From Haliotis rufescens (Eukaryota): a stretch of 64,000 bases of DNA. The stretch covers positions 13,206,001 through 13,270,000 of the forward strand of contig NW_025963890.1 in NCBI RefSeq assembly GCF_023055435.1, written 5' to 3'. Shown here in pieces: positions 3,500 to 56,600 of the stretch. A program made the position numbers and the translations under genes. The notes under the pieces were generated by a model. That model saw only the letters and a program-made list of their open reading frames with translations. It searched no databases and had not been told where the DNA came from. How positions within the stretch are numbered: the first letter of the stretch is position 1; every line of letters starts with the position of its first letter.

Positions 3500-3606
3500 T
3501 CCGTTTTGAGCATGTTGAGTTTCTACCTTAAAAAGTCCATATTCATTGTTCTCGTCTTCCTGAGATACATCGTCAATATGATTAGCATGATTAGTGGAAG
3601 ATCTGT

Positions 3607-4413: not shown

Positions 4414-4497
4414 GTTGTTTTGAATACCGAGCGAACGCACATGGTCTGACCAAGATCGTTGTTACAACTCGCCGGCACGACAAACGCACTAAATTGA

Positions 4498-18372: not shown

Positions 18373-21300
18373 CTGGAAGACAAACATTGTTTAGATCTTA
18401 CAATTACGTAGATATCACTTTGTTTACTGAGTCAATAAGGAGGTTGAGTTCACTGCTGCCCAGCATGGTGAGTGAGTGATTGGGTGAGTGGGTGAGTGGG
18501 TGAGTGAGTGAGTGCAAACAAGGGTTCGAACCCATGATAATAGCTTTCTGGTATGCCAAAGGGACGCAACTCTGCACAGTGAATTTGGGCTTAATGTGGG
18601 TAACAGAGCAGAGGGACCCAGGTTGTAGTCATTTACCACTTAGGTGAAACCTATAATCTCATAATAATCAGATATTTTACTCCAATATAATACATAAAAT
18701 CTGAGGACACCTCATTGGTAGTTGCATCAAGTGAACCCTGAGTGAAATGAAGGTTGTGGAGGCTCTTTGAGCCAATCAGATGTCAGCTTTCTAAAACTAA
18801 TAGGTTTCATTTAAGGAATTTCAATTTGTACAAAAGAGAAACCCACATAGAACACAAATATTCCTTCAATGGTACTTTGGGTGTAGATGACATGGCACTC
18901 GAGACATGACAGGGTGTATAAACAACAACAATATGCCGCTGCCTTAATTATCTAAAGTCAGAAGTGGTCATTTTAGTTCGACTTCGAGATCAGACATGCT
19001 GATCTGAATGCTTTGCCCGGTGAATCTTAGAAGTCTTGACGCTTACTGGCTGATCAGAAAGTTCAGCTGACACCTCCTGAGGTAATGTTGTCCGATGCAG
19101 TGAGGTATATTGTAGAAAAAGATCTGATTTGCATTAGACTGGTGAAACACACGCACATGTACGGCGCTGACAGATCAACAGGATCATAAACGGGATAAAT
19201 CTGAAAAGCAAATCTTGAACCAGTGCATGCAAGAAGACATTTTGGCCCTTGATCAAGCATGTGTACTAGGGGCCAAGTTTACCAAGGAGCGTAATGCAAA
19301 TCAATATGTCAGGTTGGATTCAACAACAATTCAAACTGTATACAAACCTTTGTGAGACAGGAAATGCCAAGAGCTACCCTGAACTGTCTGGACAAGTACA
19401 CCCTGTTGACATTGGAGGGGTACTTGTCCGCTAGAGCTATGAGCGGCCCGATGAGTTCCCCATCAGTACTGCTGTCATAGGTCATGCTGTAGTCAAACTC
19501 ATAGGGCAGGTCTGTAAAAAACATACAGTCTGTCTTTAATTCACAGTTTCGAAGCCCTAGGCTTGTTGGATTTTTGTTTTGTTTGTTTTGTTTCTTGTTT
19601 AACGCTGCACTCAGCAATATTCCAGCTATATGACGGCGGTCTGTATATAATCAAATCTGGACAAGACAATCCAGTGATTGATATCATAAACATCGATCCA
19701 CGCAATTTCTGATACCATGACATGCATCAACCAAGTCAGCGAGCCTGACCACACGATCCCCTTAGCCGCCTCTTACGACAAGCATGGGTTGATGAAGACC
19801 TATTCTACTCTGGATCTTCATGGGGACAATGATAACGAGCTCTGCAATGGTCTGAACAGCTGTTTCAGTAAGCCAGCTCATGATCTAAAGACGAGGGTGC
19901 CTCAAAATTGCTTGAAAGACAAGGAAAATGTTTACTTTTCACATCAGGGTTATCAAAAAAATCTCATTCCTGCTTTATTTCCAACACCGCTACGGCAGAC
20001 ATCAACAACTCACTGCAGTGATATTCTGGAGACATTTCACTCCCAATGGTGAGACACTGGACCTCCGATATGACCCCCGGGTTCAGTTTGTTGTAAGGGC
20101 TCACAATCACTCCAACAAAATGGCTGCCACCTTTGGCAAACCAGTCCTACAAGGTAAAATTCAAAACTGACAAATTTCAAAAGATATTTCTTTACACATC
20201 ATTCAAAGTGTAAGATGACTCCAAATCGCCTAGGTGGTTCTTATGACAAGCGTGAGTTACTGGTGATCTCCCAATATCCCTCAATAGTAAAGTGTGAATT
20301 TGGTGTCATGGTTTACAAGTGTATAAAATGCACAGTTATCCTTTTATTTGTTATTTGAAAAGTTAGATCAAATAACAACAATTTTAGAAATACCTATGAA
20401 AATATAATACTCTTATTACAGCGGACATCCTTAAACTTAAAGGTTAACAAATGTAAACACTGTTAACAAATGCAAACACTGTTAACAAATGCAAACACTG
20501 TAACAAATACAAACACTGTTAACAAATGCAAACACTGTTAACAAATGCAAACACTGTAACAAATACAAACACTGTTAACAAATGCAAACTGTTAACAAAT
20601 ACAAACACTGTTAACAAATGCAAACACTGTAACAAATGCAAACACTGTTAACAAATCCAAACACTGTTAACAAATGCATACACTGTTAACAAATACAAAC
20701 ACTGTTAACAAATGCAAACACTGTAACAAATGCAAACACTGTTAACAAATCCAAACACTGTTAACAAATGCAAACATTGTTAACAAATGCAAACACTGTA
20801 ACAAATGCAAACACCCACCTGAAACTTGAGCTGTGTTTCAATATCCCTGACAGAAGGGTTGGGGGCAAATGTTGGATGTGAGTGATACCAGCCGACTACA
20901 ATCAGGCCTGCCGCCGAGATCTGCTCACTGGCCTGCGTCTGGGAGACTGGAAAGAAACAAACATCATTTTGAAAGAGGACATTATATACTCACCAGCCAG
21001 AGTATCTGTCATCAAAATACATTTATTAATAGCTGAAAATTAACAATAACTAAGTATACAAATTCGCCGTCTCCGTAAAATTGAAATAGTTATAGTGACT
21101 GTCATATAGTTACTGTGTACCTATTACGACCTAGAGTCCTCGCAGGCATCCACTTATCCCTTTCAAACTGCTATGAAAACTTGTGCTATATTTACACTCA
21201 TCAGAGGGGTATACAAAGTATGTGATTTACACTACCAGTTGTCGGATTTTCATTTTTGTGAAAGCCTCAGTGGCTGAGTGGGTTAGATCGCTGACTTTGT

Positions 21301-24300
21301 GTACTGGCGATTAGGTGCCTCACTCTGGCAGTGTGGGTTCAAATCCTGGATGGGACTCAACCCCAAAAAAGTACGAGAATCTGTACTTTACTAAGAAAGC
21401 GTTATCCCAAATATAACATTTGTTCCTTTCAAACTGCTGTATATCCCTAAATTGGGAATGGAAATACTCAGACATTGTAAAACTGAATTTGAGATAATAT
21501 CAAATCTTCAAAGAAAATGAGAGGAATTCTGTGCTACTAATAATGAGTGAGTGAGTATGGTTTTACGCCGCTTTTAGCAATATTCCAGCAATGTCATGGC
21601 GGGGGACACCAGAAATGGGCTTCACACATTGTACCCATGTCGGGAGTCGAACCCGGGTCTTCGGCAAGACGAGCGAACGCTTTAACCACTAGGCTACCCG
21701 ACCGCCCCTGCTACTAATAAAGAACCACATAAGTAACAAGGACATGATCACACACACTCACGATACATGGCAACACATGGTTAGCATGGTAAGCTACTAC
21801 TCGACTACTGCTGGCTCGGACTAACCTGGGTCCATCTCACACTGCATGCCTGTACTGAGGCTGTTGCAGGGCATCCTGATGTCCTAATAAGGACATGATC
21901 ACACACACTCATGATACATGGTAACTCGACTACTTCTAGCTCGGACTTACCTGGGTCCATCTCACACTGCATGCCTGTACTGAGACTGTTGCAGGGCACG
22001 GCCATCCTGATGTCCTAATAAGGACATGATCACACTCACTCACGATACATGGTAACTCGACTACTGCTGGCTCGGACTAACCTGGGTCCATCTCACACTG
22101 CATGCCTGTACTGAGACTGTTGCAGGGCACGGCCATCCTGATGTCCTAATAAGGACATGATCACACTCACTCACGATACATGGTAACTCGACTACTGCTG
22201 GCTCGGACTAACCTGGGTCCATCTCACACTGCATGCCTGTACTGAGACTGTTGCAGGGCACGGCCATCCTGATGTCCTAATAAGGACATGATCACACACA
22301 CCTCAGCCGCTCACGATACATGGTAACACATGGTTAGCTAATACACGACAACTGCTGGCTCGGACTAACCTGGGTCCATCTCACACTGCATGCCTGTACT
22401 GAGACTGTTGCAGGGCACGGCCATCCTGATGTCCAGTATGCCCAGGTCACCATGGTACTGACCACCCAGCATCCCTATCACCTCTGTCTTGGAAATGTGA
22501 GCATGGACGTCCATAACTGCTACTGTCGTGTTGGTCATGGACACGCTGAAAGGAGCCTGTTTGAAAGAAGAAAGATCAGGAAAATATAGAACAGATGAAA
22601 CATACAACATAACACTGCCCTTTAGTAATATCAGTGACAAGAGATGCCAGGTTATTTCGCCAAGGGTACTGAAACTGTATTATGGTTTTACTATTATAGA
22701 CCTCTAGAGGATGCAGAACTTCTTAAGGGCTTCTTATCGTATGATCAAGAAAACACGTTTCAAATGCTGCTGATCAGAGCTGCCTACCCACAATTGCTTC
22801 CATATGTAGTGAGTGAGTGAGTTGGGTTTAACAACGCTTTTAACAATATTCCAGTAATATCATGGTGTGTCAGCAGACCAGGGTGTCACAGGTCTTAGAC
22901 GTTTACAACTTTGGTGAAACCCACGACACGGGTATGGTGCTGACAAACTAAGAAACATAATCGGGGCAATCCGGGATTCGAACCCACAATCATAGGTTTC
23001 TGGCATGCCCAAGGGACGCAACTCTGCACAGCTAATTGCAGCACCTCAGACGACTGGGCCATCCATGCCCCTGCTTCCATATGTAGTGGCAATACATTCT
23101 GTGTGTACAATGGTCACTCTTTGTTCTACAAGAACTAATGAATAGTTTTCCAAGTATTTATGGTTGTAGACAACTTTCATGCCTTTGGATATTTCAGATG
23201 TGAAATGGGGGCGGTCAGGTAGCCTAGTGGTTAAAGCGTTCGCTCGTCACGCCGAAGACCCGGGTTTCGATTCCCGACAAGGGTACAATGTGTGAAGCCC
23301 ATTTCTGGTGTCCCCCGCCGTGATATTGCTGGAATATTGCTAAAAGCGGCGTAAAACCATACTCACTCACTCACTCACTCAGATGTGAAATCATCTGCTT
23401 CTGCCTTCCCTTGTGCCACATCTTCATTAAATATGTTCAGCTTTGGTTACTTAAAATCTTTAGACTGACTAAAGAGGATCCATACTGAAAAGCACAGTGA
23501 GGATAACATTTTTAACTGCTACAGTGGTTTGAAGACATCAACCAGGTCACGACAGTCTGCATTACAAAACAGAATGAACACAATTTTTTTTTTGTAACTG
23601 CTATCAAATTCATTTGGCGAACAATGAAGTATGTAGGGCGTATCATCATATATTCGCAGTGTTTAGTGTACAAAATACGCAAATACAAGACACTTTTAAT
23701 GGATAGCATGTCCTCTTATTCTTTGTCATGACTTTCAAATACTTCTTGCTCCTTGATTAGGTGAATGATGAAGGAACATTCATTCATTCACCTGATCAAG
23801 GAGCAAGAAGTAGATCAGAAACGTTGTGACAAAGAATAAAAGAACATGATATCCATAACAAGTGACATGTATCCATCATGTTCATGTTCTCACAACTTCT
23901 AAATGCCCATCAAATACGCAAAATTCAAACTCTGCATGATCAGCAACATCTGACAACTCACCGGTCGATCTATGGTAAAGGGCTGGCATGGTATCAGTTT
24001 GAAGGGATCGTATGACACTTTCATCATCTTAGCAACCTTGACCTTCCTTTCTTCTCCAGATCCAGTCTTGTGCTGTGAACCGAAGATACAATTCATACAA
24101 CTGTCCAGAACAATAAAATATGCAACCTTTATTTAAGGGAAAACATACCCATGTCCACATAAAGTTCAGTCATTAGCATTCATTAGTCACGTCACTTACT
24201 TCAATTGTTTTTCCTTCCAATTCCTTTTCATCCACCCAGTGACCAGACGAGTCTCGGATCCGTCTCTTCCTGGGTCTCTGTTACCAAGACAAGACAATTG

Positions 24301-27300: not shown

Positions 27301-30300
27301 TGATGACTGGGACACCCATGTCCCCACAGTGTTTCAAAATAAGCATCAATATCATTGCGTCCTTGTCATAACCCTACTTGATAGTTAAAGATTAGGGTGC
27401 CTAGATTCCAATACTGTATGAGCAAACCTCCAGGAACCCAGAATCCATAGCTCTAGCATTGTTGTAAGCCTATGTTAAAGTATGGGAGTTACGAACATCA
27501 TAGGGCTAAGATCACTACGTGGAACCGGGCCCAGCAGGGGGCCCGCGTTAGAAACTAACAGTTCTAGCCCCCTAACCCTTATAATGATAACATATAGCAA
27601 AACCCATAAAAACGGCCCACTTATCTGCTTATCTGGTTGAACTAATTTCATTGTTAATAAGTCACAACCATCTCAGTTATTTACCAGCAATCAATAATAT
27701 GGTTCCTAATCTTCAAGTATCTCTCAGGAGTTTTAGATTGTCGACCATCAAAGAATTCAGAGTGAATCTTCCTCTCCTCCTCTGTGATGTCATCAGCTTC
27801 CATGATCCTTTCCTCCTCCGGGATTGGAAATTCTATCACTTCTCCTGCCGATGTTGTGATACCATTGACTGAAATAAATAACCAGTGGTCACTGTCAGGG
27901 TCACAGCCATGTCCACCATAACCATGATAACATGACTCAACTTCTGCCTGGTCAGTCAACAGACAGATCACAATAATAATAACAATCAAATTGAAACAAA
28001 AACAATGTTTGTTCTCAGAACTTTGGAAATTGGAAACTTGGTGCTGCAGACATGGAGGAGCAGCCTACAGTGAGTGAGTGAGTGAGTGAGTGAGTGAGTG
28101 AGTGAGTGAGTGAGTGAGTGAGTGAGTGAGTGAGTGAGTGAGTGAGTGAGTGAGTGAGTATGGTTTTACGCCGCTTTTAGCAATATTCCAGCAATATCAC
28201 GGCGGGGGACACCAGAAATGGGCTTCACACATTGTACCCATGTCAGGAATCGAACCCGGGTCTTCGGCGTGACGAGCGAACGCTTTAACCACTAGGCTAC
28301 CCGACGGCTCCGAGAGCAGCCTACACATTTTAACATTTGTTTAAGATGACAAATAAAAATGTATTGAAATTATGAATTATGATCAAATTAACATTCATCC
28401 TAGTCATAACCATCTCATGACCAGTGTCTTGTTTGATCAAGCATAATGACATACTTTTTTTTATCAGATGTGCTAAACTATTATTTGCATTTTGTGGCGA
28501 GGACAGAAAGGAAGCCAAGACAGATTACCTCCCCTTGTTTGAACAGGAGACATGTATTGACACATGTTGAAACAGACTGCCCTATATGTCAATATAAATG
28601 AGTATGACCCTTTAGTTGGCATACTGAGACACATTCAACCATGGTATTAAACAAACTAGACATATTTAAAGATGTAAACAAACGCACATTTCGAAAAGAT
28701 GCATATTTTTCATCACCTTTGCCTTATTTTCAAATCATTTACATAAATAAATAACTCTAGTTATGTAAAATATAATTCAAAGAAACTATTCAATGAGATT
28801 TCAAAGTAAACATCATGGACATGGTAAATGGGTGTTTATCTCTCTCAGTATACACCTGATACATGCTAAAGTAGAATGTGTGAAATTGAAATCGGTGGAC
28901 ATCGGCAGCTGACCGTAGAGGTGTATGAACAAGATAAATAAAGACATCCAAAAAATATATACATGTACCAAGTATTAAGAAAAACAAATTGTCACTTGAA
29001 AAGTTTCTGAAGACTTTAATTGATATATCTTGGATAGAAAAATCAATTGCACACAAACACAATACAATAAGACAGTTTGACAGAGAATGGAAAACTTTGG
29101 CAAATGAATTGCCTACTTAATGTGTCGCTATTTGTTTCTTTTGGTGTTTTTTTAACATAAACAATTTCCACTAATGTGCTGTCAGGATTTAGCTTCACAC
29201 TTAGTTAATAAACATGGCAAATGTAGCCTGCCCGTTTCATTGTAAACATTGTTGGACACCTGTAGCCAACTTAAATTTTGTTGTCTGCTGTATAGGTATG
29301 TTACCTCCACCTAATAAGTATACCACATGACGTGCTACTCAATGTTCTACTCTGTAATATCATAAACTGAATTGAACACGTTGAATTAAAAAAAAAATTT
29401 AAAAATTTAAAAATAAAACAAAATTTTCCCTGCTTCATTATGATCAATCCTATGATAATACTGATCATTGAACAGCTTACGGTAAAACATGACTTCACTG
29501 GTAAAAGATAACAAAATGTAAGCATGTTATTATCATGATGACGAAGACAGTTAATTCTACATTCCACATACCTATAACTTTCTCCTCAAGCTTTGGCACA
29601 TCCTGTAGAACAGTCATTTCTTCACTGCTGTCACAACATTCGGTGGGCGGTTCAGGCTGAGTAAATTCTCCTGTTGTATTAGCATTGGCTTTGGTTTCTT
29701 GCTTACTATCAGTAAAAAGTTCCGTGACATTCTCATCCATAGCACCTTCTAAGTTTTCAGATCTCCCCTGAGTAGCACTGTCTGTGTCAGCTGCTGCAAC
29801 GTCAGCATCAGTATCTCCTTCATCAGACTGTTCACCATCACCCAGCTCAGTCGGTGTAACATTGGCTGATCGTAACAACTTCTCATACACAGAGCTAGGT
29901 GAAATGGACCTTCCTAACAGTATTGGGTTGTCGTTATCGTCATCATCATTTTCAATATCGATATCCACATCCTCCTCCTCTTCAACTGAATTGGAACTCA
30001 AGTTCCCAATTTCGTCGGAGGAAGTGCCAGTTTCTTTCTGTAAAGCTTCATCTTTCCCTTCAGAGTGTTGCACTACGGAAGCAAGAATGTCGGACTGAAC
30101 GACCTCTGATCCATCGGCTGTGACTGTTGTTAGAGTCTGGAGATCACTAGCACTAAAGTCACTCTCAACAACAGCAGCCAAAGTGTCCAGTCCGGAAGCA
30201 ATGTGGATCAGCGTCCCGACCGAGCTGTCAAAACCTAATTCCTTACTCCCAGACAAGAACCCTACCCCAGACAGATTCACACTGGGAGACAATTCACTTG

Positions 30301-33300
30301 TGTCCACATTCCCGGTATAGGAACCACATTGAAGGTCCTGTAGCCCAGAAATACCAATGATTGTATTTGCAGATGGTAAAACACCATCCAGACCATTGGT
30401 AATGCTTTGTACTGATTCTATTTGGGAGTCTGCTTTTGTTGTATTGTGGTTTTTCTTCTTGTTTTTGGACTGCTTGGACACTGAGGTCTTTCTGCTCTGA
30501 CTGGGTGAACTGGAAAGGGATGTGACTGTGGGCTGGGCAGTTGTGACGGAAGCAAGGACATTAGCCAGTGGGTCAGCTGACTGGCTGAGGTGGGAGGCCA
30601 GTTGTGTTGAGCCAAGGGGCAGATCTCGAGACGTAGAGGACACAACTGCAGAGGCAGCTTCAGCCTTCTTGGCCTAGAAACACATGCAGAGTCAGTAGAA
30701 TAAGACATAGCATTTATGCAGTGTTCCCGTTTACCAGTAATTACCAGTCTTTTACCGGTAAAATTAGGTTTGGACTGGTAATTCATGTGACTGCCAGTCC
30801 CTGTGGACAGGCAAATAAAGTACCCCATAAATCTTTGCTGTTGAACAAATCAGAGGCGATATTCATATAAGTATATTTTTTAACTAAGTCAGCTTGTCTC
30901 TCCATCAGGGTTTCCACTTTCTATTTTTAGTGCAAGGAAATAAAATTCACTTTGCTTTGAAATTAAATCTGCATTTCTAGCGACTTACACACGAAATATA
31001 TAAAAAAAGAGAGAAAATTGTTACTGAACTTTGTTTGAATGACGTGTAGATCTAATTGGGTTACTTCAGATATGATGTCATGGCATTAAACATGATGTTG
31101 AAAGAATTAAATCCAGGTAACTTTCATACAGTTTTTGATTTGTTGCCAGTCAACCAGGACTGGCAGTTTCAAAAGCCAGCAGGAACACTGTTATGAGAGG
31201 GTGACTGTTGTTTTATGTCACAATCAGCAGTACTACAGCTATATCTTGTCATCCTGGACATAAGTGAGTCCACATCAGACAAACAAGAGCTTTACATCAG
31301 ATCCCTGTCTGAGTTCCCCCTACAACATACAGGAGGTACTGAGGAACTGCTCTGTCTAGGAATCCCCACAGGGAGTCAATAATGCATCACCACACAGGTT
31401 CCTGGAATTAAATAAGTACTTGAGGTGGTAGCTGTGCAGGGGTCTGTTCAACAAAGCGATTATAGTGCTAAGGTGATTTACCTCTTTTCTTTAACACAGA
31501 CTTATGATAGTACAGAGCTCCAGATAACTTTTTGAGCAATTGAGTTTTACTCAAAGGTTTCTATCTTAATTGGGTTATTACACTTTTCATTTGGTTAACA
31601 AATATTTGTTCACTCATCTATTCATCACTCCATTGGGTTTTTCCCAAAATGAGTAAACATTTTGAGATTTAAAAAAAAATGAAATAATGTTTTAGATGTA
31701 CAATGTATATAATGGTTCTAAAAATAGGCTTGACTAAGAAGGTAAAATAACTCGTAATTGTGTTTCGGAAATAAGTTCCGTTGTACCCATGTTGAAAAAG
31801 CTTCATTGGGTATTTACGTGTGCTGGTTTCATACAATTGAGTTTTTCATTTAATGCATGCGTTTCTGTACGCATGTTAGTTGAAAGTAAATGGGTTTTGA
31901 ATAGTTTTAGGGGGTATTTTACGCAAATACACAGTGTATCTGTAGCTATGATAGTAGTAGCACATTATTACACTCTGCCCGTTTCAAGCAGCATATAAGG
32001 TACATGGGTTTCACTAATGTACAACATTGTACTCATTCATACAGGGGGCACGGGGAGCCCAGTTGTCAAAGGCGCCGCGATTCACTGTGCAGAGTTGCGT
32101 CCCTTGGGCATGCCAGAAACCTATGATTGTGGGTTCGAATCCCGGATTGCCCCGATTATGTTTCTAGGTTTGTCAGCACCATAACCGTGCTTATGGGTTT
32201 CACCAAGTGGTAAACATCTTAGACTTGCATCACTTCGGGCTTTCCTCCCACTTTAAGCTGACACGCCGCGATATAACTGGAATACTGTTAAAAGCGGCAT
32301 TAAACCAAACTCACTCACTCACTCACTCACTCATTCATTCATACAAAGATGTGTAGGTACAATGTGTAAATATTACTCAAACAGTGAAATCCCCAAAAAT
32401 TCTTAGAAAAACTTGCACTATGGTAAAGTCTACACAATGTAGCATCCCTCATTTGACAGATTGTAGCAGGAGTTACATCACTTGGTAACTCGATCAAAAG
32501 AGTTGATAATTTACATTGAATACTGATAATCATGATGATAGTAGCAAAATGCAGACATAGAACAAATATAAGTTATAAGGTGAACAATCACCAATCCAGT
32601 AGTGAACACAAAGAAAAGACAGACTGCACTGTACATCAAGAGCTTCATGTCATGCTATGTCTGCGACACGAGTGTCTTAATTCCGGTGTTTCCCCAGCGG
32701 AATTTAGGCACAACTGTCAACAATGCCGTTCAGATGATGGAAACAATACACTGTTGTCTCGTGACGTGATATGACCCTAGGGCATGTTTGATTTTTATGA
32801 ACCCCGATATGTTTGCCCTCGTAGGTAATATAGTGGGATATGTTGCCCAATTGTTGTCACTTTCTTGCCCAAATATGCTTTTGTCTTGCTAAGAATCAGA
32901 TTGAATCAGTATCAGCTGATGACACTTCTGCAACATACCAGATTCTTGAAGTATTGCTGGGCATAGTTCTTCACTTGCAGGCTTGTCCGGGTGGGAATGA
33001 TTTCAGAGATGCGGGTCCAACTTCTACCATACAAATCCTGGAAAACATTGAGTTAGAGTGCACACGTTTTATCTAGGCAGACGGTTGGTTGGGTTTAACA
33101 TAAGGGTAGGGGAAAGGCCTGCATACACAGTATATATCCAAGACATGAAGGGTAGGAAAAAAGTCCTGCATAAACAGCATATATGAAAGATATAAAGGGT
33201 AGGGGAAAGGCCTGCATACACAGTATATATGAAAGATATAAAGGGCAGGGGAAAGGCCTGCATACACAGTATATATGAAAGATATAAAAGGTAGGGGGAA

Positions 33301-36300
33301 AGGCCTGCATACACAGTATACATGGTATATATGAAAGATATAAAGGGTAGGGGGAAAGGCCTGCATACACAGTATATATGAAAGATATAAAGGGTAGGGG
33401 AAAGGCCTGCATACACAGTATATATGAAAGATATAAAGGGTAGGGGAAAGGCCTTCATACACAGTATATATGAAAGATATAAAGGGTAGGGGAAAGGCCC
33501 TCATACACAGTATATATGAAAGATATAAAGGGTAGGGGAAGGCCTGCATACACAGTATATATGAAAGATATAAAGGGTAGGGAAAAGGCCTTCATACACA
33601 GTATATATGAAAGATATAAAGGGTAGGGGAAAGGCCCTCATACACAGTATATATGAAAGATATAAAGGGTAGGGGAAGGCCTGCATACACAGTATATATG
33701 AAAGATATAAAGGGTAGGGAAAAGGCCTTCATACACAGTATATATGAAAGATATAAAAGGTGGGGGAAAGGCCTGCATACACAGTATATATGAAAGATAT
33801 AAAGGGTAGGGGAAAGGCCTTCATACACAGTATATATGAAAGATATAAAAGGTAGGGGAAAGGCCTTCATACACAGTATATTTGAAAGATATAAAAGGTA
33901 GGGGAAAGGCCTGCATACACAGTATATATATGTGTAGGATAAAGCATGTCCGAGGGTTTTTATGTTATTTAAAACCCGCATCCACAGGATTGAACCTAAT
34001 GGCGTCAGCCCCTATGTTTTATCCCAAGGATAAGGGTTTTAAATATCATAAAAACACAAAGGCGAAGTGTTTTACCTAACTTATAAATGAAAAAAAGAAA
34101 CTTAAAACAACATTTATCAACATTTGTATGTTTCAAACATACTTTCCATGAACCGCAGGAAATGGATGTAAAATATCTGTTGCTGGTGTACAGTACTTGA
34201 AAAAGACATTCTTAAGAGGATTGTGATCAGCACCTCTATAGCCTAATGGAAGACTAACCGGGCTACAGCTATGAGGGTTGCGGGGTCGATCCTCAGGAAT
34301 TGTTCAAAGGCCAAAAAAATATTCTTGCGAGAAAGATTCATATGTTACATTTGAACAGAAGTTGTATTAATAAAATCCCAATGATATTATATAAAATCCC
34401 AGGGATATCACAACCATGATAACATCCCTGTTTATGAGATTTAATCCTACTGGAGAACAATGGGATGACATCACAGGAGGTTTATAAGCAAGACATAAAG
34501 GGTTGGGGGAAGGCCTATATACAAGACATAAAGGGTTGGGGGAAGGCCTATATGCAAGACATAAAGGGTAGGGGGAAAGGCCTATATACAAGACATAAAG
34601 GGTTGGGGGAAGGCCTATATGCAAGACATAAAGGGTAGGGGGAAAGGCCTATATGCAAGACATAAAGGGTTGGGGGAAGGCCTATATGCAAGACATAAAG
34701 GGTAGGGGGAAAGGCCTATATGCAAGACATAAAGGGTTGGGGGAAGGCCTATATGCAAGACATAAAGGGTTGGGGAAAGGCCTATATGCAAGACATAAAG
34801 GGTTGGGGGAAGGCCTATATGCAAGACATAATGGGTTGGGGAAAGGCCTATATGCAAGAAGTAAAGGGTTGGGGAAAGGCCTATATGCAAGACATAAAGG
34901 GTAGGGGAAAGGCCTATATGCAAGACATAAAGGGTTGGGGGAAGGCCTATATGCAAGACATAAAGGGTTGGGGGAAAGGCCTATATGCAAGAAGTAAAGG
35001 GTAGGGGGAAAGGCCTATATGCAAGAAGTAAAGGGTAGGGGGAAGGGCCTATATGCAAGAAGTAAAGGGTAGGGGGAAATGCCTGCAAACACTCTATATA
35101 AGTAAGACACAAATCATTACCAGCCCACTGAGAAAAAGCTGTTTCTCTTCCTCGTTCCAGGGACGTTTGGCAGAGTTCGACTTGGGCTTTGTCGGACTGG
35201 AAGACGGAGACTTGTCAGATGATACCATCTTTGTCTTGGATCGGCCATTGAGGTATTGTCTTGAGAAGTGGTCAAGGAAAACTTGACAGAGAATTAAAGC
35301 CTCAGAGTGAGGCTCTGTTCAACTGATAACAACAAACAAACAATAAAAATATATGGACAGTGGAGCTTTTCATTTGCAACAATTTTTATGTCCATTGTAG
35401 CCAATTTCTACTGTTGTTTGTTTGCTTCTTTTCTAATGCTTAAAGTCGCACTCAGCAATATTACAGCTATGTGAAGGCGATCTATATAGATCAGGTCTGG
35501 TCCAGACAATCCAAAGATGACATGCATCAACCAAGTCAGCAAGACTAACCACTCGATCCTGTTAGTCACCCCTTCCAACAAGCATGGGTTGCTGAAGATC
35601 AATTCGAACCCTGATCTTCACAGGATGTTTGGGTCAGCACTTTTGCGTAGGACACTTATCACTTGAATGTACATATTAGGATACTGTTCTTCCATCAGCA
35701 TTCTTTCTATGGTGGCCTTTGATTTTTCATCCATGTAGCTGTCCATTGTCCATCCCTTGCACATAAAGAGACAGAAAATTACACACTGCATGTTTGAGCA
35801 AGACAAACATTTCAAATTTAAATTAATCTGGCGCGTGCAAATTGTTACATGCAAAATATTTGTGGTGTTTTACATTTAGATATTATATCAAAAGTGGTGT
35901 CTGCATCTTATTATTTTAAAAGGACATTACCCAAGCCAAATTTCATACTGAAAGAGAAATTCCATTAATTTGTCCATCACAACAAACAATAGTGGCCTCG
36001 CTTGAAGTATATGTCAGTAAGCCTTTTGGGTCTTAAGTTCAAAAGCTAGAGTACAGTGGCAAAGAGATTAGTGATGCCATTTTATTGTGAAGTCATGGGA
36101 ACCACTCCATGGTCTGGTGGTAGAGCATCCACCCAGAGAACGGAAGGTTCAGGGTTCAAACCCTGGCTGCGTCATGCCAAAAGATGTTAAAAAGATGGTA
36201 CTTGTTGTTACCCTGTCTGACGCTCGGCATTAAGGGGATAAAGTGAGTGAGTATGGGTTTACGCCGCTTTTAGCAATATTCCAGCAATATCACAGCGGGG

Positions 36301-39300: not shown

Positions 39301-41028
39301 AAAATAATCATGATCATGAAAATGTCAAGAAATATAAGGCTGTCAATTTGCAGAGAATTTGTTGGACACCATTGGCATTATGACTTTTCATAGGCTATGC
39401 TTCAAAATCTTAAACAAATTCAAGGAATTATCTGGACCTGCTCAGAGGCCGATAATCGGCCCCAAGTCTGCAGCAAATGTCAAAAACAATTCCCAATTTG
39501 CAACTACCGTAAACATTTCTGAATTCAAGTTACAATGCATTAACATACATAATAACTAATTATATGGCTTTATAGTAGTAACTTGGGTATTCATTTATAT
39601 AAGACAGCTACACAATAAATTGCAAAGAACAATGAGGGATTGAATATGGTTTTATGCTGCTTTTAGCAATATTCCAGCAAGATCAAGGCGGAGACAGCAG
39701 AAATGGGCTTCACACATTGTACAATGTTGTACCCATGTGGGGAATCGAACCCCGGTCTTAGGCATGACGAGCGAACGTTTTAACCTCTAGGCTATTCCAC
39801 TGCCCCCAAAGAACAATGAAGAACGAAGCATGGTTTATTTCACGATAAAACATTGTACTATCATGACATAATTTCTGGAGATTCGAACATGCACTCGCAA
39901 CTTGATGACGTTGTAAATTGGATGACACTATTTATGAGAGGTAAGAATCGAGCGTGTTGTTCCCCATAAATGTAGCTGCCCACGCAGATAAACATAAAGA
40001 TAAACAATCACATTCAAAAGTGGGAGAAATATGATAATTGGTATTGGGAGAAAAGGAACAGATAATCTACGTTAAACATGTTAAAACTATGAGATTATCT
40101 GGGAAATACCTAAAGGTAACCTCCCTGTTCATGAAATGGACTTGTCCAACATTGCCAAGGTTGGATTGTATTCAGGGAGTCATTATTTTTTAAATAAAGG
40201 TAAACATTTTTAAAGCTTGTACATTTTATTAACATCCTTGAAGAGGCAATACAAATGTTGATATCTCATATCTTCACCCCCAAAGGTTTATTCTCCCTGC
40301 AGTGTTTTATTGTGCACCCCTCATGATTTCAAGAATATATGGACTAATATAAAATCCCCAATTTTAACCCAAAAATTCCGATATTGCATGCCAGGGCACT
40401 TAGTAAAGAATCATAGATAAATCCTTGAAATTTGAAAACAATATCTTTATGGTATAGGCCTATTGATCAAACTGAGTCCTGAAATGTGACATCAAAGATC
40501 TCCATCCGGTACAAACAAGATTTGAAATAAGATAAATGTCACACAGTAGTTTCACATGTAACTTCAATGCCCAGTAACAAAAACGTTAATGTCTTGTCAT
40601 TGTCATGTAATTCTGGTAATAGACCCGGGGAACCGAGTATCACGATTGTCACTGAACATTGCTCAAACATGTCATGTACACTTGTTCTGTATTCTAACTG
40701 TTAAAGACGATGGGACATATAACTCTACGTAGATCTAAATGATCATAAGGGGTCGGCCTCAATATTCATGTACAGTGATGCACTACAAGTGAAAACCTTA
40801 AAAATACATCTGTCTTTTATCTGCATGATTTGTTGATTTAAAATATTTGTTCTAAATTTGACATGTGATTTATTCAGAAATTGTACATATGATTTTATCC
40901 AATCTTACAGCATATCACATTTTCACGAGCCATATATCTGTTTGTTCAACTCAATTCCCCATGATCTTAACTTACTCCAGTTTAAAATCAAACTCCCCTT
41001 CGATGTCAATTTCTCCATCATCCGCCAT
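18118..41028 (-). CDS. MYSM1: MYSM1 histone H2A deubiquitinase (Myb/SANT + SWIRM + MPN+/JAMM), 16 coding exons, 3039 nt, ~1012 aa
   Basis: All exons join with GT-AG and consistent phase. SANT ([43 protein letters not shown]), SWIRM ([37 protein letters not shown]), JAMM ([25 protein letters not shown]). Confidence 0.95.
19348..19511 (-). CDS. MYSM1: MYSM1 exon 15
   Basis: LPYEFDY..CLTK; phase 1->0. Confidence 0.88.
19570..19823 (-). mobile_element. SINE-like family B copy
   Basis: Homology to family B. Confidence 0.85.
20014..20146 (-). CDS. MYSM1: MYSM1 exon 14
   Basis: [19 protein letters not shown].. Confidence 0.92.
20444..20812. repeat. Minisatellite, 18-19 bp unit TGTTAACAAATGCAAACAC, ~19 copies
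   Basis: Tandem periodicity. Confidence 0.95.
20819..20946 (-). CDS. MYSM1: MYSM1 exon 13 (JAMM motif)
   Basis: [34 protein letters not shown]. Confidence 0.96.
21264..21410 (+). mobile_element. tRNA-derived SINE-like element (a further family)
   Basis: A box GTGGCTGAGTGG and B box GGTTCAAATCC; no intact cloverleaf. Confidence 0.55.
21544..21708 (-). mobile_element. tRNA-derived SINE family A, TSD TGCTACTAATAA
   Basis: A box TAGCCTAGTGG, B box GGTTCGA.TCC, (TCAC)n tail, 12-bp TSD. Confidence 0.93.
21826..22276 (-). repeat. Tandem array (131-bp period, 4 copies) duplicating the last 64 nt of MYSM1 exon 12 plus its donor site
   Basis: Copies at 22213-22276, 22082-22145, 21951-22014 and 21826-21883 (6-nt deletion). 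Confidence 0.95.
22370..22556 (-). CDS. MYSM1: MYSM1 exon 12 (MPN, catalytic Glu region)
   Basis: [38 protein letters not shown]. Confidence 0.95.
22812..23071 (-). mobile_element. SINE family D (expanded tRNA-Leu/Ser-like head), 17-bp TSD TGCTTCCATATGTAGTG
   Basis: TSD at 22795-22811 and 23072-23088; B box GTGGGTTCGAATCCC; (TCAC)n tail. Confidence 0.9.
23207..23378 (+). mobile_element. SINE family A, TSD TCAGATGTGAAAT
   Basis: Full-length, near-consensus copy with 13-bp TSD. Confidence 0.95.
23683..23871. repeat. ~190 bp imperfect inverted repeat (hairpin)
   Basis: TACTTCTTGCTCCTTGATTAGGTGAATGA mirrored by TCATTCACCTGATCAAGGAGCAAGAAGTA; outer arms also pair. Confidence 0.85.
23962..24072 (-). 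CDS. MYSM1: MYSM1 exon 11
   Basis: ..[12 protein letters not shown].. Confidence 0.92.
24200..24277 (-). CDS. MYSM1: MYSM1 exon 10
   Basis: [26 protein letters not shown]. Confidence 0.92.
24602..24711 (-). CDS. MYSM1: MYSM1 exon 9
   Basis: [13 protein letters not shown]; phase 1->0. Confidence 0.88.
24745..24900 (-). mobile_element. SINE-like family B, partial
   Basis: 3' half of family B. Confidence 0.75.
24972..25284 (-). mobile_element. SINE family C (tRNA head, V-domain-like body)
   Basis: Homologous to 36101-36590: GGACTGGTCGGCTCAGAGTCAG..GGGGTATTCATGTTAAACTGCGG. Confidence 0.75.
25581..25711 (-). CDS. MYSM1: MYSM1 exon 8 (SWIRM)
   Basis: [43 protein letters not shown]. Confidence 0.95.
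26290..26545 (-). mobile_element. SINE family D, degenerate
   Basis: Homology to 32044-32340. Confidence 0.65.
26670..26846 (+). mobile_element. SINE family A
   Basis: Near-consensus; TSD ~C(C/T)TTATGTTC. Confidence 0.92.
27040..27325 (-). mobile_element. SINE family D
   Basis: Homology to 32044-32340. Confidence 0.8.
27685..27868 (-). CDS. MYSM1: MYSM1 exon 7 (SWIRM start)
   Basis: ..[27 protein letters not shown]. Confidence 0.92.
28070..28313 (-). mobile_element. SINE family A with expanded (GAGT)n tail, TSD GAGCAGCCTACA
   Basis: TSD at 28058-28069 and 28314-28325. Confidence 0.95.
29572..30673 (-). CDS. MYSM1: MYSM1 exon 6 (large Ser/acidic low-complexity linker)
   Basis: 382-aa ORF; TTTCTAG acceptor, GTATGT donor, phase 0->1 fits neighbouring exons. 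Confidence 0.9.
30719..31190. mobile_element. hAT-like non-autonomous element
   Basis: CAGTGTTCCCG...GCAGGAACACTG termini. Confidence 0.5.
31513..31950. mobile_element. MITE (TIR CAGAGCTCCAGATA), apparently nested in a Harbinger-MITE relic starting ~31438
   Basis: Right end TATCTGTAGCTATG; ATAGTA on both flanks. Confidence 0.5.
32044..32340 (+). mobile_element. SINE family D, full length
   Basis: GGGGCA..A-box-like..GTGGGTTCGAATCCC..TGCCCC head, body, shared tail, (TCAC)n. Confidence 0.9.
32939..33037 (-). CDS. MYSM1: MYSM1 exon 5 (SANT)
   Basis: [33 protein letters not shown]. Confidence 0.95.
33100..33930. repeat. Minisatellite, ~46-bp unit AAAGGGTAGGGGAAAGGCCTGCATACACAGTATATATGAAAGATAT
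   Basis: ~18 tandem copies. Confidence 0.96.
34488..35085. repeat. Minisatellite, 33-34 bp unit AAAGGGTTGGGGGAAGGCCTATATGCAAGACAT
   Basis: ~18 tandem copies. Confidence 0.96.
35121..35259 (-). CDS. MYSM1: MYSM1 exon 4 (SANT start)
   Basis: [20 protein letters not shown]. Confidence 0.9.
35260..35684 (-). other. U12-type (minor spliceosome) GT-AG intron of MYSM1
   Basis: 5'ss GTATCCTAA; branch point TTTCCTTGAC at 35280-35271, 12 nt from the AG; no long polypyrimidine tract. Confidence 0.85.
35410..35623 (-). mobile_element. SINE-like family B copy inside the U12 intron
   Basis: Homology to family B, with an internal deletion. Confidence 0.75.
35685..35755 (-). CDS. MYSM1: MYSM1 exon 3
   Basis: [23 protein letters not shown], followed by GTATCCT donor. 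Confidence 0.88.
36101..36590 (+). mobile_element. SINE family C interrupted by a nested family A SINE
   Basis: tRNA-like head (TGGTCTGGTGGTAGAGC, GGTTCAAACCC); body resumes after the insertion. Confidence 0.8.
36243..36397 (-). mobile_element. SINE family A nested in family C, TSD TTAAGGGG(A/C)TAAA
   Basis: 13-bp TSD with one mismatch. Confidence 0.92.
37307..37588. mobile_element. hAT-like non-autonomous element
   Basis: TAGGGGTGAAACGATAC...CATCATTTCACCCCTG; related ends at ~25990-26110. Confidence 0.5.
37660..37753 (-). CDS. MYSM1: MYSM1 exon 2
   Basis: TTTCAG acceptor, GTAAAA donor, phase 2->0, VEDGFY..PPWMLEQ. Confidence 0.8.
39636..39806 (-). mobile_element. SINE family A, TSD CAAAGAACAATGA
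   Basis: 13-bp TSD. Confidence 0.9.
40976..41028 (-). CDS. MYSM1: MYSM1 exon 1 ([17 protein letters not shown])
   Basis: AAAATGGCG start context, GTAAGT donor; resembles the acidic D[VI]DIEG N-terminus of MYSM1. Confidence 0.85.
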
Positions 41029-41031: not shown

Positions 41032-41954
41032 GGATATAGTATCAAGGAGTTACCTCCCTTGCCAGTTTGCTAAAAAAAATTCTGTCTTGACACCATTTGC
41101 CTCCCTTGCACAGTTTAGTATTGTGCAAAGGCACATATCTTATAACTATCTACACATTTCAATACCCTCTAAAAAAACGAGGAAACGTTGTCAAATTAAA
41201 AATATAACTTCTACCAGTGTAGTCGAGCCAAAACATTTCATGATCATGAAAAGAAACCTAAATATATATTATTTGCTGAAACACGACAGTAAGCCAGAAA
41301 GTCGACCAATATATTATCTGATATATCTATATAGGACATACATAATAACAGATCAGATAAATTATAACCAGATAATGTGCTCTTGTGGCCAACCATGAAG
41401 AGCGCTTGTAATCTAATACTGCGAACATTCCCGAACTACTTACACGCCCTGTGTGTGTCTTACCACGCTGTTATCAAAGGTAGCCATCGATCGAAAAGTC
41501 CGAGCGCTGCTTAATCCCCAAATAAGGCTTACGTTATTGTCTTTTGTAAGAGTCACTGGGGTGCTTTTACACAATATTCGTAAGTAGTAGTTATAACCCC
41601 GGTGTACTCTGCAGAAAGGACATTCGTGTTGACGTGTTAGTTTGATAATAGATGTACTTATTACTTTTTTGTCATTTTATCGTCAATTATCCTTAATTAT
41701 TCTAGACATATAATTATTTCTCGTTGTCACAAGGTATCATGTGAAAACAATTTGTTATATATCATACACATACAAACAAACACAGATTGGCTATGTTACC
41801 ATAGTTTTACGTTTTTTAGGACATGCGCATTGCGTGTCTAATATTTAAAGTACTTTCAAGTCGAATGGTGTTGGTAGTTGATAAACATAACTTATTGACA
41901 TTTTTTTTAAATGGAGTTACAGGAAAGATTAAACTTGTTTTGTAGGTTATAATC

Positions 41955-42791
41955 TACGGAAGCGTAGTAGGGCCACGGTGAATCTTTTTTGTCTAAGTAT
42001 CTTCTACGTAGGACTTATTATCTCCTACGTAGGACTTAGTATCTCCTACGTAGGACTTACTACCTCTTACGTAGGACTTAGTATGGCCTAGAATCGCGAT
42101 CTCCTACGTAGGACTTAGTATCTCCTACGTAGGACTTACTATCTCCTACGTAGGACTTAATATCTCTTACGTAGGACTTACTATCTCCTACGTAGGACTT
42201 AATATCTCTTACGTAGGACTTAGTATCTCCTACGTAGGACTTACTTTCTCTTACGTAGGACTTAGTATGGCCTAGAATCGCGATCTACTACGTAGGACTT
42301 ACTATCTCCTACGTAGGACTTACTATCTCTTACGTAGGACTTAGTATGGCCTAGAATCACTATCTCCTACGTAGGACTTAGTATTTCCTACGTAGGTCTT
42401 TGTATCTCCTACGTAGGAGATACTAAGTCCTACGTAGGAGATAGCGATTCTAGTCCATACTGTCATACGTAGGACATACTAAGTCCTACGTAGGAAATAG
42501 TAAGTCCTACGCAGGAGCTAGTAAGTCCTACGTAGGAGCTAGTAAGTCCTACGTAGGAGATACTTAATCCTACGTAAGAGATATTTAGTCCTACGTAGGA
42601 GATAGTACTTCTAGGCCATACTAAGTCCAGCGTAGGAGAAAGTAAGTCCTACGTAGGAGATAGTAAGTCCTACGTAGGTGATAGTAAGTCCTACGTAGGC
42701 CATACTAGGTCCTACGTAGGCCATACTAGGTCCTACGTAGGAGATAGTACTTCCTACGTAGGAGATAGTAAGTCCTACGTAGGAGATACTT
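41955..42791. mobile_element. Foldback-like palindromic element of ~34 tandem 21-bp units with core CCTACGTAGG
   Basis: Left arm 41995-42412 and right arm 42413-42791 are inverted; TIR AAGTATCT.CTACGTAGGACTTA. Confidence 0.8.
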
Positions 42792-42974
42792 GCTTCTTGT
42801 AACTGTGCCAGTTCTACAGATCAACTAAACCGTTGGGCAAGAGAAAGTATTTTGATGTGTTTGATGGGGGCAAAAACTGAAACAAACAAGAAATGGTTAT
42901 TTGATGCTGATGTATGTAATACGGGTATCAGAGCTGTGTTTTAGCTCTTACGTTGCAGTGTTTTTGGCAACTGT

Positions 42975-43475
42975 TTTCAGTCTAGTAACGTTTGACAACG
43001 CTGGTAATGTTTTGGTGAAATCCCATATTTTCTTTTGCCCAGTAGTTTATCTTCCGATGCGTATTCTACATTAGCAAGAACATGTAAATACCTCTGGTAT
43101 ATGTTCAACAAGACATTTCTAGGAAGTACATACTTAAGCATTCTCATGGAAAACGCTAGATGTTTATTATGGTACATGACTTGTCCATTTCATGTTATCG
43201 GATAATATTACACTAAGGTGTTTAGGAGTAGTTACCTGCTCTAAGTGTTGATTATTTAAAATCAAATCAGGTATCTAGGCTAAGTTACGATGACTAAATA
43301 CCATGTACTGAAGTTTACTAGCCATTCCTGTGTCCAGTCTTCGAGCTTAGCTAAATCATATTTATGTTCTTCATCTATAACTTCTTCACTTGACGCAGCA
43401 ACACTTACATATGTATCTTTAGCAAAATGACTAATTATAGTTGACAGGGTATTAGCTAATTCATTAATGTACATC
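42975..43475 (-). mobile_element. CR1/L2-like LINE ORF2 (RT C-terminal) fragment
   Basis: YINEL..FAKDT (FADDT-like)..DLAKLEDWTQEWLVNF; KHLSVILSDNMKWTSHV; LKYVLPRNVLLNIY..VEYAS. Confidence 0.75.
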
Positions 43476-45169: not shown

Positions 45170-45317
45170 NNNNNNNNNNNNNNNNNNNNNNNNNNNNNNN
45201 NNNNNNNNNNNNNNNNNNNNNNNNNNNNNNNNNNNNNNNNNNNNNNNNNNNNNNNNNNNNNNNNNNNNNNNNNNNNNNNNNNNNNNNNNNNNNNNNNNNN
45301 NNNNNNNNNNNNNNNNN
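45170..45317. other. Assembly gap (N run)
   Basis: Run of n. Confidence 0.99.
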
Positions 45318-49009: not shown

Positions 49010-49445
49010 AGTTACTTATGTTGCTAATGTTACTTAAGTACTTATGTACTTATGTTACTTATGTTACTTATGTACTTATGTTACTTATGTTACTTATGTT
49101 ACTTATGTACTTATGTTACTTATGTCACTTATGTACTTATGTTACTTATGTTACTTATGTTACTGATGTAACTTATGTTACTTATGTACTTATGTTACTT
49201 ATGTTACTTATGTAATTTATGTTACTGATGTAACTTATGTTACTTATGTACTTAGGTGTCTTAGGTTACTTATGTTACTGATGTAACTTATGTTACTTCT
49301 GTACTTATGTTACTTATGTAACTTATGTTACTATGTTACTTAAGTACTTATGTTACTTATGTTACTTATGTACTTATGTTACTTATGTAACTTATGTAAC
49401 TTATGTTACTTATGCACTTATGTTACTTATGTAACTTATGTTCCT
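49010..49445. repeat. Micro/minisatellite (TTATGTTAC/TTATGTAC)n
   Basis: 8-9 bp tandem units. Confidence 0.95.
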
Positions 49446-50007
49446 TTATTTACCTACATTGTTGTCAATCATGGTAAAGAACATTTAATTCCAAAGTATG
49501 ATAGTGTTTTACTGACTGGTATAATTTGTCAGTCTGACAAAGACATCCAATTTTAGGCAATTTGTGAATCAAGCAATTTGTAAATTGAATGGAATTTTCA
49601 GTTCTTTTATAAAGTGATTGAGTTTAGACATATGCAGTAACTTGCACGTGATTCATGGGTCTTCACTACGTTGAGAGGATTATTTTATCCGGTAATGTGT
49701 TAATCCGGACTATTACATAGCAACGAAGCCGTCCGGATAAACGAGGTTCACCACATCGGAGCGTGCAAATAATGTTGTACTATAATCACCTATCTCAGAA
49801 ATATAATCTTTAGTTGGCTGTGTTTTAGTCTTAAACCTGCTATTTCATTTAGAAATAATATGAACACTTTTTATTGTTTATTAGTTGAACTTTTCACAGT
49901 ACAAATGTATCGATTCTATGGCACAGTATTTCACAGTGAGTACACGTATATGAATTCAAAGAAGATGCTTCAAAACTACACAGGCAACATAAGAAAATAC
50001 TGTACAG

Positions 50008-53521: not shown

Positions 53522-53631
53522 AACCACGACGAACGCTGTGACACACGTTCCATTACACTTCACGGTGTCAAGCAAGCAGCCAACATATAGACACACGACT
53601 GCGGGAAGGGTCTCCCCAAGAACCCAACACA

Positions 53632-53686
53632 ATGTATTCAACAACAGCCTTTACGCTGTTAGCTCTGCTAGCAAGTGCACTGGCAG
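53632..53686 (+). CDS. LLTP exon 1 (signal peptide)
   Basis: ACAATG start; G|GTAAGT donor. Confidence 0.85.
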
Positions 53687-56600
53687 GTAAGTCTTCAGAC
53701 TTTGAATGTGTACCTGCACTAGTGGAATGATATATTTCAGGTTTGGTTTTTTTTGACGGACCAGGTCGGATTAGGTCCCTTTTGGGGCCACATGATCTGC
53801 TTGATTTAAGAATTAAGAAAACTATTAGAGTTGTTATGAAAGTTATCAGGTGTGTTAATATATGCATTAGACTTTCTTCATTACATGTTTAGGAATTGTG
53901 ACAACACTAGATGTACCAGGCCGATATTAGAGATGTTCAGGAAGCGTGTTTCTAATATTTGACCAAAGAGCAAATCTTTGATCCAAACTTTTTTTTATTG
54001 AATATATAGTTGGTTGGTTGCTTGGTTGTTTTACGCCGCCCTCAGCACTATTCTAGCTATATGACGGCGGTCTGTAAATAATCGAGTCTGGACCAGACAA
54101 TCCAGTGATCCAGTGAGCATCAACCAAGTCAGCGAGCCTGACCACCCGATCCCGTTAGTCGCCTCTTACGACAAGCATAGTCGCCTTCTACGGCAAGCAT
54201 GGGTTGCTGAAGACCTAGTCTAACCCCGGATCTTCACGGGTCTGGATAAATATACAGTGCACATACGTGCTACATAATTCATCTAAGGTCATAGTCTTAG
54301 TTAAACTTAGATCTACATTTTAAAACACAGTCCTTTTTCGCTTTTTTAGCCACACTTCTGTATTTGATCATGTGCGAAGTTCAAAATATGCACCGGTAAC
54401 GATGAACAATAGCTATCTGTAAGCCAATTGAACTTTCTGATATTTTCACATCATTGATTCAAAGGTATCTGCAACATCAAAATTTGACATTTCCAGAGGA
54501 CAAAAAACTCATCATTCTTGCTTATCCTTTTGAATGGTTACATGTTCGCTTTCCTCATCACCTATTTGTCGATTGGTATAAGCCTTAACGTGAGCTATAA
54601 ATGTTGAAATTGATCACCTTAGATATTCAGTTATAGGCTACCTTTTTATATACCTTTAGTTCATTGTTAAATTCAAACAACGTTATGAGGTAACACTTAA
54701 AATATCGAGCTCTTAGGTTATTGGTGTTGTAGTTTCAAATGTTCCACGTGTGTGAGGTCATAGTACAACATGACACCACTTTGCAAATGTGACACACTGG
54801 AGGAAGGTGTTACAGTCTAACTCTTCATCAAAAGAATTTCTTTCCACCATACCAATCCTAACAAGGATTTCATAGTTTCACATAGCTAATTTTCGATACC
54901 ATTCATTTCTCTATATATTGTTGATTAAACATGATATTTTATACTAGGGCCAATCACCTACCAGTCACGCGATGAAACGACATCCTGCGCCAGACGATGC
55001 CGAGGTAAGTAAAATAGCTTAGTTTGTAATGACTGCTGATCTTGTCTTAATCTACATATCTATAATAAAAACTGTTTGAAAAATACATATCGATGTTTGT
55101 GGACAGAACTGATATCAGTTGTTTTCATTTTTGTGTCAGACATGAACAAGTTCAACTACCTCCCAGGAACAACCTATGAATTCGATTATAATGTTCAGAC
55201 ACATACATCTATGGAAGGAGCTTCTGGTGATCAAGCGACTCTTGGTATCCGGGCAACTGCTGACATTGAGGTGCTGTCTAAGTGCGACATGGCTCTTAGG
55301 GTAGGTGCAAGTACACACATTCATTAGAGCAATGTCCAATACACCATAACATTGTGAGAAATATGCGCGATGTGTAAAAAAGGGCATCTCTCTTCTATTG
55401 TACAAACATGTGTTTCAGCTGCGAGATGTGAAGGTATATCAGTCTGATCCATCAACCTCTACACCAATGAAATACGCTGATGAGTCAGGCGAGTTCAGAA
55501 GGAATCTAGAGCGATTCCCCCTCCGCTTTTCCTTCCAAGATGGCATAGTAGAAGAACTGTGTCCAGCTGAGGGTGAAACCACATGGGCTCTCAACATCAA
55601 GAGAGGTCTTCTCACTGCTGTTCAGAACAGTATGGATAACCTGGAAAAGAACCAGATAGTACAAGAGGTAAAACAAACATGTTTTTCTTGTGTTTTAAAA
55701 CTGTATTATGTATAATTTGTATAACATGCATGTATTGGGATACATATGCAAAAGTTCTATCCTTGATGTCCCCAGAGTGACGTCACAGGCGAGTGCAACA
55801 CCAACTACACGGTGGCATCACATGGCTGGTACTCTACAACAATTAAGAAGACCAAGGATCTCCTAGGTTGCACTGATCGTAATGGTTATCACAGTTCCGT
55901 CCATGGCATGCAGTACAGAGTTCCTTCAGAGATCCAGTCTCTGCCCCTCATGAAGAGTACACACGAATGTGAACAAGAACTGGACAAGAATGGACTCCTC
56001 AAGAGTGCGCTCATCCGGGAGACCCACACATTCAGACCTTTCTCCAGGGCCACCAGCGGTGCCACCACCAAAATCCTTCAGAGACTCAACTACAAGACTC
56101 AGAGATCTGGTGTTACCACAAGACAAGGTGATCAGTCTATACATCTCATTGTGCTAGTTTCGCCGATGACACAATACTTAAAGATCATTAAATACATATA
56201 ATCATCACCTTTAATAAATGTTCCTCAGGATCGTACATACTTAATTTATTATTTACACGTTCTAGATTACATTCGGAATCGGGTAGGAGTTGTGTTTGAA
56301 CATGCCTATGGACCAGGAAACAAAGACCAACCAATGAGAGATGCTGAGAGTAAACTGCGAGAGATCTGTCAGAATACACGCGAGGATATCCGCCCCGACA
56401 CTCCACGCTTGTTCTCTGAGCTTGTGTACATCATCAAAAATCTGGATGTTGATAACCTTAGAAGTGTCTACCAGCAAGTAAAGTCTGGAGCTACCTGCAC
56501 TGACAACAGCGAGAGAGTCAAGTTAGTATAAACACTTGAAGTGACACAAACATATTGCATATCATATATACCATTCCTGAAAATCCTTTCAACAACAATC

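Follow-up and report, generated by a model that had tools for sequence, protein, structure and literature searches.

The 21-bp-period array beside a MYSM1-like gene in the window (the whole 64,000-nucleotide stretch of DNA analysed here) is very probably a gene-less, right-truncated IS3EU/GingerRoot-type copy in which two end regions are fused head-to-head, with the 21-bp units as likely transposase sites. The family to which it belongs (family A, defined by the core TCCTACGTAGGA) has TACGG..CCGTA ends, 6-bp target-site duplications (TSDs) and a link to a transposase gene. The less ordinary result lies among its sister families, in which the core is swapped on a constant period and linker. The main features are as follows.

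40976..41028, minus strand: likely first coding exon of the MYSM1-like gene, a putative assignment from 17 residues followed by a GTAAG donor
41949..41954, plus strand: presumed left copy of the 6-bp TSD, ATAATC, from its position beside the TACGG end and the 6-bp TSD of the family
41955..41981, plus strand: terminal cap with the TIR tip TACGG..., identical in sequence to the family consensus 27-mer
41982..41998, plus strand: T-tract and GTCTAAG lead-in, common to other copies, including the transposase-linked loci L134 and L152
41999..42406, plus strand: left arm, 17 cores TCCTACGTAGGA with inward linkers CTTA(G/C/A)TATC
42085-42100, 42269-42284 and 42348-42363, plus strand: three shortened variant units of the left arm
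42407..42418, no strand: central 12-bp palindromic core, with the flip at 42412/42413 and no spacer
42419..42791, minus strand: right arm, 16 cores in the opposite orientation, terminus ...GATACTT
about 42441-42456 and 42602-42617, minus strand: two shortened variant units of the right arm

An earlier note on this DNA had counted about 34 units at a 21-bp period, and we found exactly 34 cores in 41999-42791, with 28 of the 33 intervals being 21 bp and four being 37 bp. Each repeat unit consists of the 12-bp palindrome and a 9-bp asymmetric linker, with 17 cores directed inward from the left, one at the centre and 16 from the right. The perfect 10-bp palindrome ascribed to every unit is present in 23 of 34, and the unit is better read as carrying a 12-bp core (19 of 34 are perfect 12-mers); a 12-bp palindrome arises in 0.8% of trials with shuffled units. 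The reported flip without a loop spacer was borne out and falls inside one core. The mirrored stretch of about 800 bp is likewise present but is an imperfect palindrome: the match is exact for 11 bp either side of the centre, register is lost about 33 bp out, and the arms are alike at 328 of 363 aligned bases (about 90%) with five gaps. A 16-bp piece described as an insert does recur in both arms, although only two of its five occurrences have the letters given for it, and it reads instead as a variant unit (TATGG-) minus 5 core bases, an undeleted form of which lies at 42690-42740.

The cap is confined to the left side, as had been claimed, in that no right cap and no end followed by ATAATC was found by sequence search in the remaining window and the next 10 kb, but it is not unique, as its 24-bp form has 205 exact matches in genome G000 (reversed control, 0). 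The same search gave no sign of a right cap displaced by an insertion. As the right lead-in, cap and TSD are deleted, the window copy is truncated and likely immobile, and its own TSD cannot be read; it is likely neutral as well. An unrelated repeat of about 220 bp with short inverted ends (42826..43050; 1531 first-look candidates) starts about 35 bp past the array.

To place this copy in its family, we drew on 441 first-look candidates from a search of G000, of which 40 were scored. Most fetched copies have the layout cap>units|units<cap with TACGG..CCGTA ends. Among 31 cap pairs (loci L001-L060 and four others, two of the pairs being nested internal pairings), most have these ends, and the 6-bp flanks are exact duplications in 21 and match with at most one mismatch in 26, compared with 0.07 under shuffled pairing. 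Exact duplications of 3-5 or 7-10 bp occurred in none of the 31 pairs, and the one other length above chance was 2 bp, exact in three pairs. Copies are 209-1842 bp long (median 513) and contain only repeat-derived ORFs. In structure, family A is a Type 2 foldback/MITE: non-coding, with long modular TIRs of tandem subterminal repeats and many dispersed copies. The proposal of a non-autonomous foldback element is thus upheld, and the genome-wide recurrence of cap and design that had been set as a test means that the array is not merely a local inverted satellite.

Several further observations concern family A loci. Its 6-bp target sites favour G/C as the first and last base and A/T at the four positions between them. 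At L042 and L046, which carry a cap without an array, no partner was found within 10 kb. At L126 (4349-5760; G000:C2), cores of family A are arrayed on a different linker, CTTATCATC, up to a short terminus, CTTCCGTA; this is a subfamily with another cap. Family A arrays extend to >2.7-3.7 kb with higher-order periods at L012 (C57:10741194 onward) and L028 (C13:4945737-4948497), and a family E end plus transposase fragment is amplified in a 1-kb tandem at L133/L070-L079 (C1:41329000-41339000); in these arrays, elements are turning into satellites.

TA..TA ends and 6-bp TSDs are the defining features of IS3EU (PMC10045372), whose termini are given as TAYGG..CCRTA (PMC12730594). We identified several transposase families by a Pfam rva_4 search of G000 followed by a search with one such protein, and found that two loci join the family A array to an IS3EU-type transposase gene. 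At L134, the family A lead-in with three units immediately precedes a decayed transposase, which is 52% identical in its best segment to P0001. L152 retains the cap and 14 units together with the 5' leader and the beginning of the same gene. At L153 and L154, 36 bp of the transposase leader remain between the arms. No intact family A transposase was found among the 4 DNA and 69 protein matches of these searches. The sister transposases P0001 and P0002 match Pfam rva_4, and D133, D192 and E232 are invariant in the transposase alignment, which has no invariant H or C and hence no HHCC motif. Family A therefore has TA..TA ends with TIRs, a 6-bp TSD and an integrase-like DDE transposase without HHCC, as in IS3EU/GingerRoot; the window copy itself shows the left end only, and its TSD is presumed from that of the family.

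These features do not support the recombinase-type or Kolobok origins suggested earlier. Crypton-like elements lack TIR-type ends and their partner encodes a tyrosine recombinase, whereas we found TIR caps, 6-bp TSDs and a DDE partner. Kolobok and piggyBac duplicate TTAA; here, 4-bp duplications were exact in none of the 31 cap pairs and the 6-bp sites vary in sequence. A MULE-type foldback such as Muta1, with an 8-9-bp TSD, is at odds with the absence of pairs at 8 or 9 bp (0 of 31). The half-core/linker/half-core arrangement does resemble a loxP-type site. Even so, it is extremely improbable that the array is a Crypton-like or Kolobok element, given the linked DDE transposase, or an assembly fold-back artefact or local inverted satellite: the arms differ by 10% and five gaps, the same design recurs with TSDs at many loci, and the junction of flank and cap is present in four runs of four studies. 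These contigs reach 26, 25, 10 and 39 bases into the cap (4 of 24 listed runs), of which only the 39-base contig, from organism B, passes the junction threshold of 31 bases. Because the junction occurs in independent runs, the left junction of the insertion is not an assembly product.

We then compared unit design across families. A core-blind pattern, linker-N12-linker-N12-linker, had 450 matches, and the 100 listed contain three core types, all palindromic in consensus. Among sister IS3EU families from G000 and metagenome contigs, the 21-bp period is kept and six share the linker CTTAnTA(T/A)C, whereas the 12-bp core differs between families while being palindromic in consensus. Families B (core TTGAAATTTCAA) and C (core TGGAAATTTCCA) have a related cap (557 exact matches) and transposase-bearing copies, with B mostly having a 54-bp spacer at the centre. 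Inside a family C element, L101/L102 (12553-12978; G000:C583) holds a 21-bp repeat with core ATCTACGTAGAA and a self-mirrored linker, GATACTATC, interrupted by another insertion. Three copies of a 12.6-kb element represent family D (core TCGTGGCCACGA, linker CTTATTATC); they are 99.4-99.8% identical across the 10.7 kb that were compared, and two of them have exact 6-bp duplications. In this element the transposase frame is open, HECT-domain exons lie on the opposite strand, and Tc1-like and RT fragments are nested; it is apparently intact and recently mobile.

G000:C1:41839651-41852225: family D copy (L147+L093+L094), with further copies on C112 and C594

In the metagenome set of 80 loci, 61 had enough upstream DNA to be examined, and 22 of these 61 (not independent of one another) have a 19-22-bp-period array upstream of a related transposase. 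A 12-bp palindromic core was found in three of the 22 arrays, at L163 (TCGTGCGCACGA), L191 (TTGCGATCGCAA) and L172 (TCGTAATTACGA), with L163 and L191 on the common linker; a fourth locus, L216, has a low-complexity palindromic core only. Across seven cores (A, B, C, D, L163, L191 and L172/H), at least eight changes in the left half are each mirrored in the right half in consensus, a count to be read with a choice of seeds that favours symmetric words and with the other arm of D being one base off. No palindromic 12-mer frame emerged from the seed search for F, G, L166 or L187; TRF gives palindrome lengths of 12 bp (F) and 10 bp (G). A transposase tree of 33 rows, drawn from G000 and the metagenome only, groups A, B, C, D, F, G, L163 and L172 in one 99/99 clade with five rows lacking a perfect core. 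L191 and E are placed outside this clade, and a separate IS3EU clade has non-palindromic units (19-21 bp). Palindromes of at least 12 bp occur in 4 of 35 unit classes of 17-25 bp, all four IS3EU-linked, in fetched G000 DNA that is enriched for such loci.

A possible reading of this pattern, which we offer tentatively, is that one IS3EU lineage has a two-part end code. A 9-bp linker common to the families and a 12-bp palindrome particular to each would recur once per two helical turns and be coated on one face by a symmetric dimer; the palindrome would act as an address that co-changes with the protein in mirror steps, which would allow families to coexist and promote spacerless foldbacks. It is rather unlikely that core symmetry is instead a neutral by-product of quasi-palindrome correction and concerted minisatellite evolution in a TIR of which only the cap is needed for mobility. 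This reading is consistent with the 55% of family A cores that are imperfect (405 of 901 are perfect), with arm lengths that vary widely and with the absence of an array at L135 and some metagenome loci, but mirrored double changes in family A show no excess (3 of 74, against 4.1 expected), and period and linker are kept across distant transposases.

We consider it unlikely that the units are kept as single-strand structures, with neighbouring cores forming 12-bp stems around a 9-nt linker loop or the whole element forming a cruciform. The linker does stay constant while the core changes symmetrically across families, the element has a strong predicted single-strand fold (-320 kcal/mol, z -39), and 22 of 135 family B linkers are self-mirrored, GATAnTATC, as expected from template switching on hairpins. 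Set against this, hairpins do not require a strict two-turn period, the other IS3EU clade manages with non-palindromic units, and the nearly identical family D copies have self-complementary cores in just 2 of 9 and 1 of 11 cases; the 496 of 901 family A cores that deviate also speak against a strict structural need. On the basis of the fold model, extrusion of a cruciform and formation of a hairpin RNA from the element would be physically possible.

The units are likely transposase binding sites, as judged from position, conservation and analogy, and binding of a dimeric protein to them is plausible. In the modelled family D transposase (pLDDT 90.5), a pair of N-terminal helical bundles precedes the catalytic core, and the best fold matches of the model are IstA, TnsB and MuA, albeit weak overall (TM 0.2-0.4). 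The end sites of TnsB and MuA are asymmetric. As the same holds for IstA, the analogy does not explain the palindromic core. A pair of direct repeats at 23-bp spacing, read by two HTH domains, is required by IstA (PMC10122671). IS21 IstA, Tn7 TnsB and Mu MuA are likewise DDE transposases with two N-terminal helical domains, whose tandem HTH domains recognise repeated sites in the ends, and these ends have several direct repeats about two helical turns long, similar to the units here; the prokaryotic ends have 2-4 sites each, whereas those described here have up to dozens with a palindromic core (PMC10122671).

The foldback form may have arisen from a parent element in which both ends had a cap and a unit array. 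Self-complementarity makes the 12-bp core the identical word in both arms, so that a core-to-core fusion, by deletion or template switching, would join the arms without a loop and give the spacerless flip. Slippage afterwards may have altered arm lengths, transposase acting in trans would have spread gene-less copies, and loss of the right cap would have yielded the window copy. Of 27 copies bounded by TSDs, 18 have a spacerless flip inside a core. In these, a variant unit often sits one step from the centre, suggesting descent from a single founder or a small number of them; the other centres in the remaining 9 copies count against the explanation given here.

At the locus itself, the MYSM1-like gene lies on the minus strand, with a SWIRM exon at 27684-28064 that matches Pfam SWIRM and PDB 2dce KIAA1915, and its likely start codon at 41028 is 927 bp from the cap, in agreement with the distance of about 1 kb given previously. 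The array had also been placed between two divergent promoters. However, the first Pfam-supported plus-strand exons (Vitellogenin_N) are at 55350-56201, putting the two promoters more than 10 kb apart unless something lies within a masked run of 148 N at 45170-45317. These exons fall in a vitellogenin/apolipophorin-like gene at 53542-56201 on the plus strand, with a likely signal-peptide exon near 53640-53730. Elsewhere, the window contains a broken LTR-retrotransposon remnant on the minus strand (1231-4461; RT and RNase H Pfam matches) and six other minisatellites (12724-13608, 20443-20814, 21799-22434, 33102-33929, 34483-35078 and 49011-49446), of which the one at 21799-22434, with a 131-bp unit, adjoins an MPN-like exon and possibly takes in a duplicated exon end.

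The position upstream of this start codon raises the idea that the window copy was co-opted for MYSM1 promoter regulation through CpG supply, cruciform formation or protein docking, which we judge very unlikely. The element does supply CpGs, as had been proposed, with 42 in 837 bp compared with 27 and 25 in the 1-kb flanks (a doubled local density), and all 34 central CpGs are intact in the window copy. The implied methylation effect did not hold up: family-wide, central CpG transitions (69 of 1258) are no more frequent than those at other C/G positions (139 of 2516), so there is no sign of germline methylation, and CpG hypermutation is not apparent. The left junction is shared with a second organism whose flank is about 2% diverged, so the insertion is likely older than the divergence of the two organisms; an older neutral insertion would, however, be expected to be shared by close species, and this copy is one among hundreds.

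No description of IS3EU arrays of 21-bp palindromic-core units was found in the literature, with Repbase, Dfam and most supplements outside the comparison. Published IS3EU/GingerRoot elements have the same TA..TA ends, 6-bp TSD and integrase-like DDE parent, and single-ended truncated copies are abundant, as here; in the portions of these reports consulted, subterminal 21-bp arrays, palindromic cores and spacerless foldbacks are not mentioned (PMC10045372, PMC6839031, PMC12730594), and the terms 'subterminal' and 'palindrom' are absent from the accessible text of PMC6839031. The Type 2 foldbacks Muta1 of Aedes (PMC5225508) and FB4 of Drosophila (PMC2955051) likewise combine a terminal motif with tandem subterminal repeats in modular TIRs and have hundreds of non-autonomous derivatives with variable repeat number. 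Muta1, however, is a MULE with an 8-9-bp TSD and 12-bp repeats at a 15-16-bp period (PMC5225508), whereas family A has a 6-bp TSD, a 21-bp period, a self-complementary core and no spacer. IS3EU-related tandem repeats are also described in other marine invertebrates, namely HSymIS3EUlR in Hydractinia (PMC11934779) and CgiSat35/47 in oyster (PMC8268682), but their units are 129-690 bp, with no palindromic 21-bp unit or foldback form in the parts of those descriptions consulted. Judged against the literature rather than Repbase or Dfam entries, family A is a new family of the known superfamily IS3EU/GingerRoot.

The window copy itself is ordinary mobile DNA. The structure and function of IS3EU are described as largely unexplored (PMC11934779), and G000, with at least four families that have matched transposases and different cores on one linker, provides a panel for the study of IS3EU end recognition. 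The palindromic unit also offers a simple reason for the presence of IS3EU ends on foldback elements.
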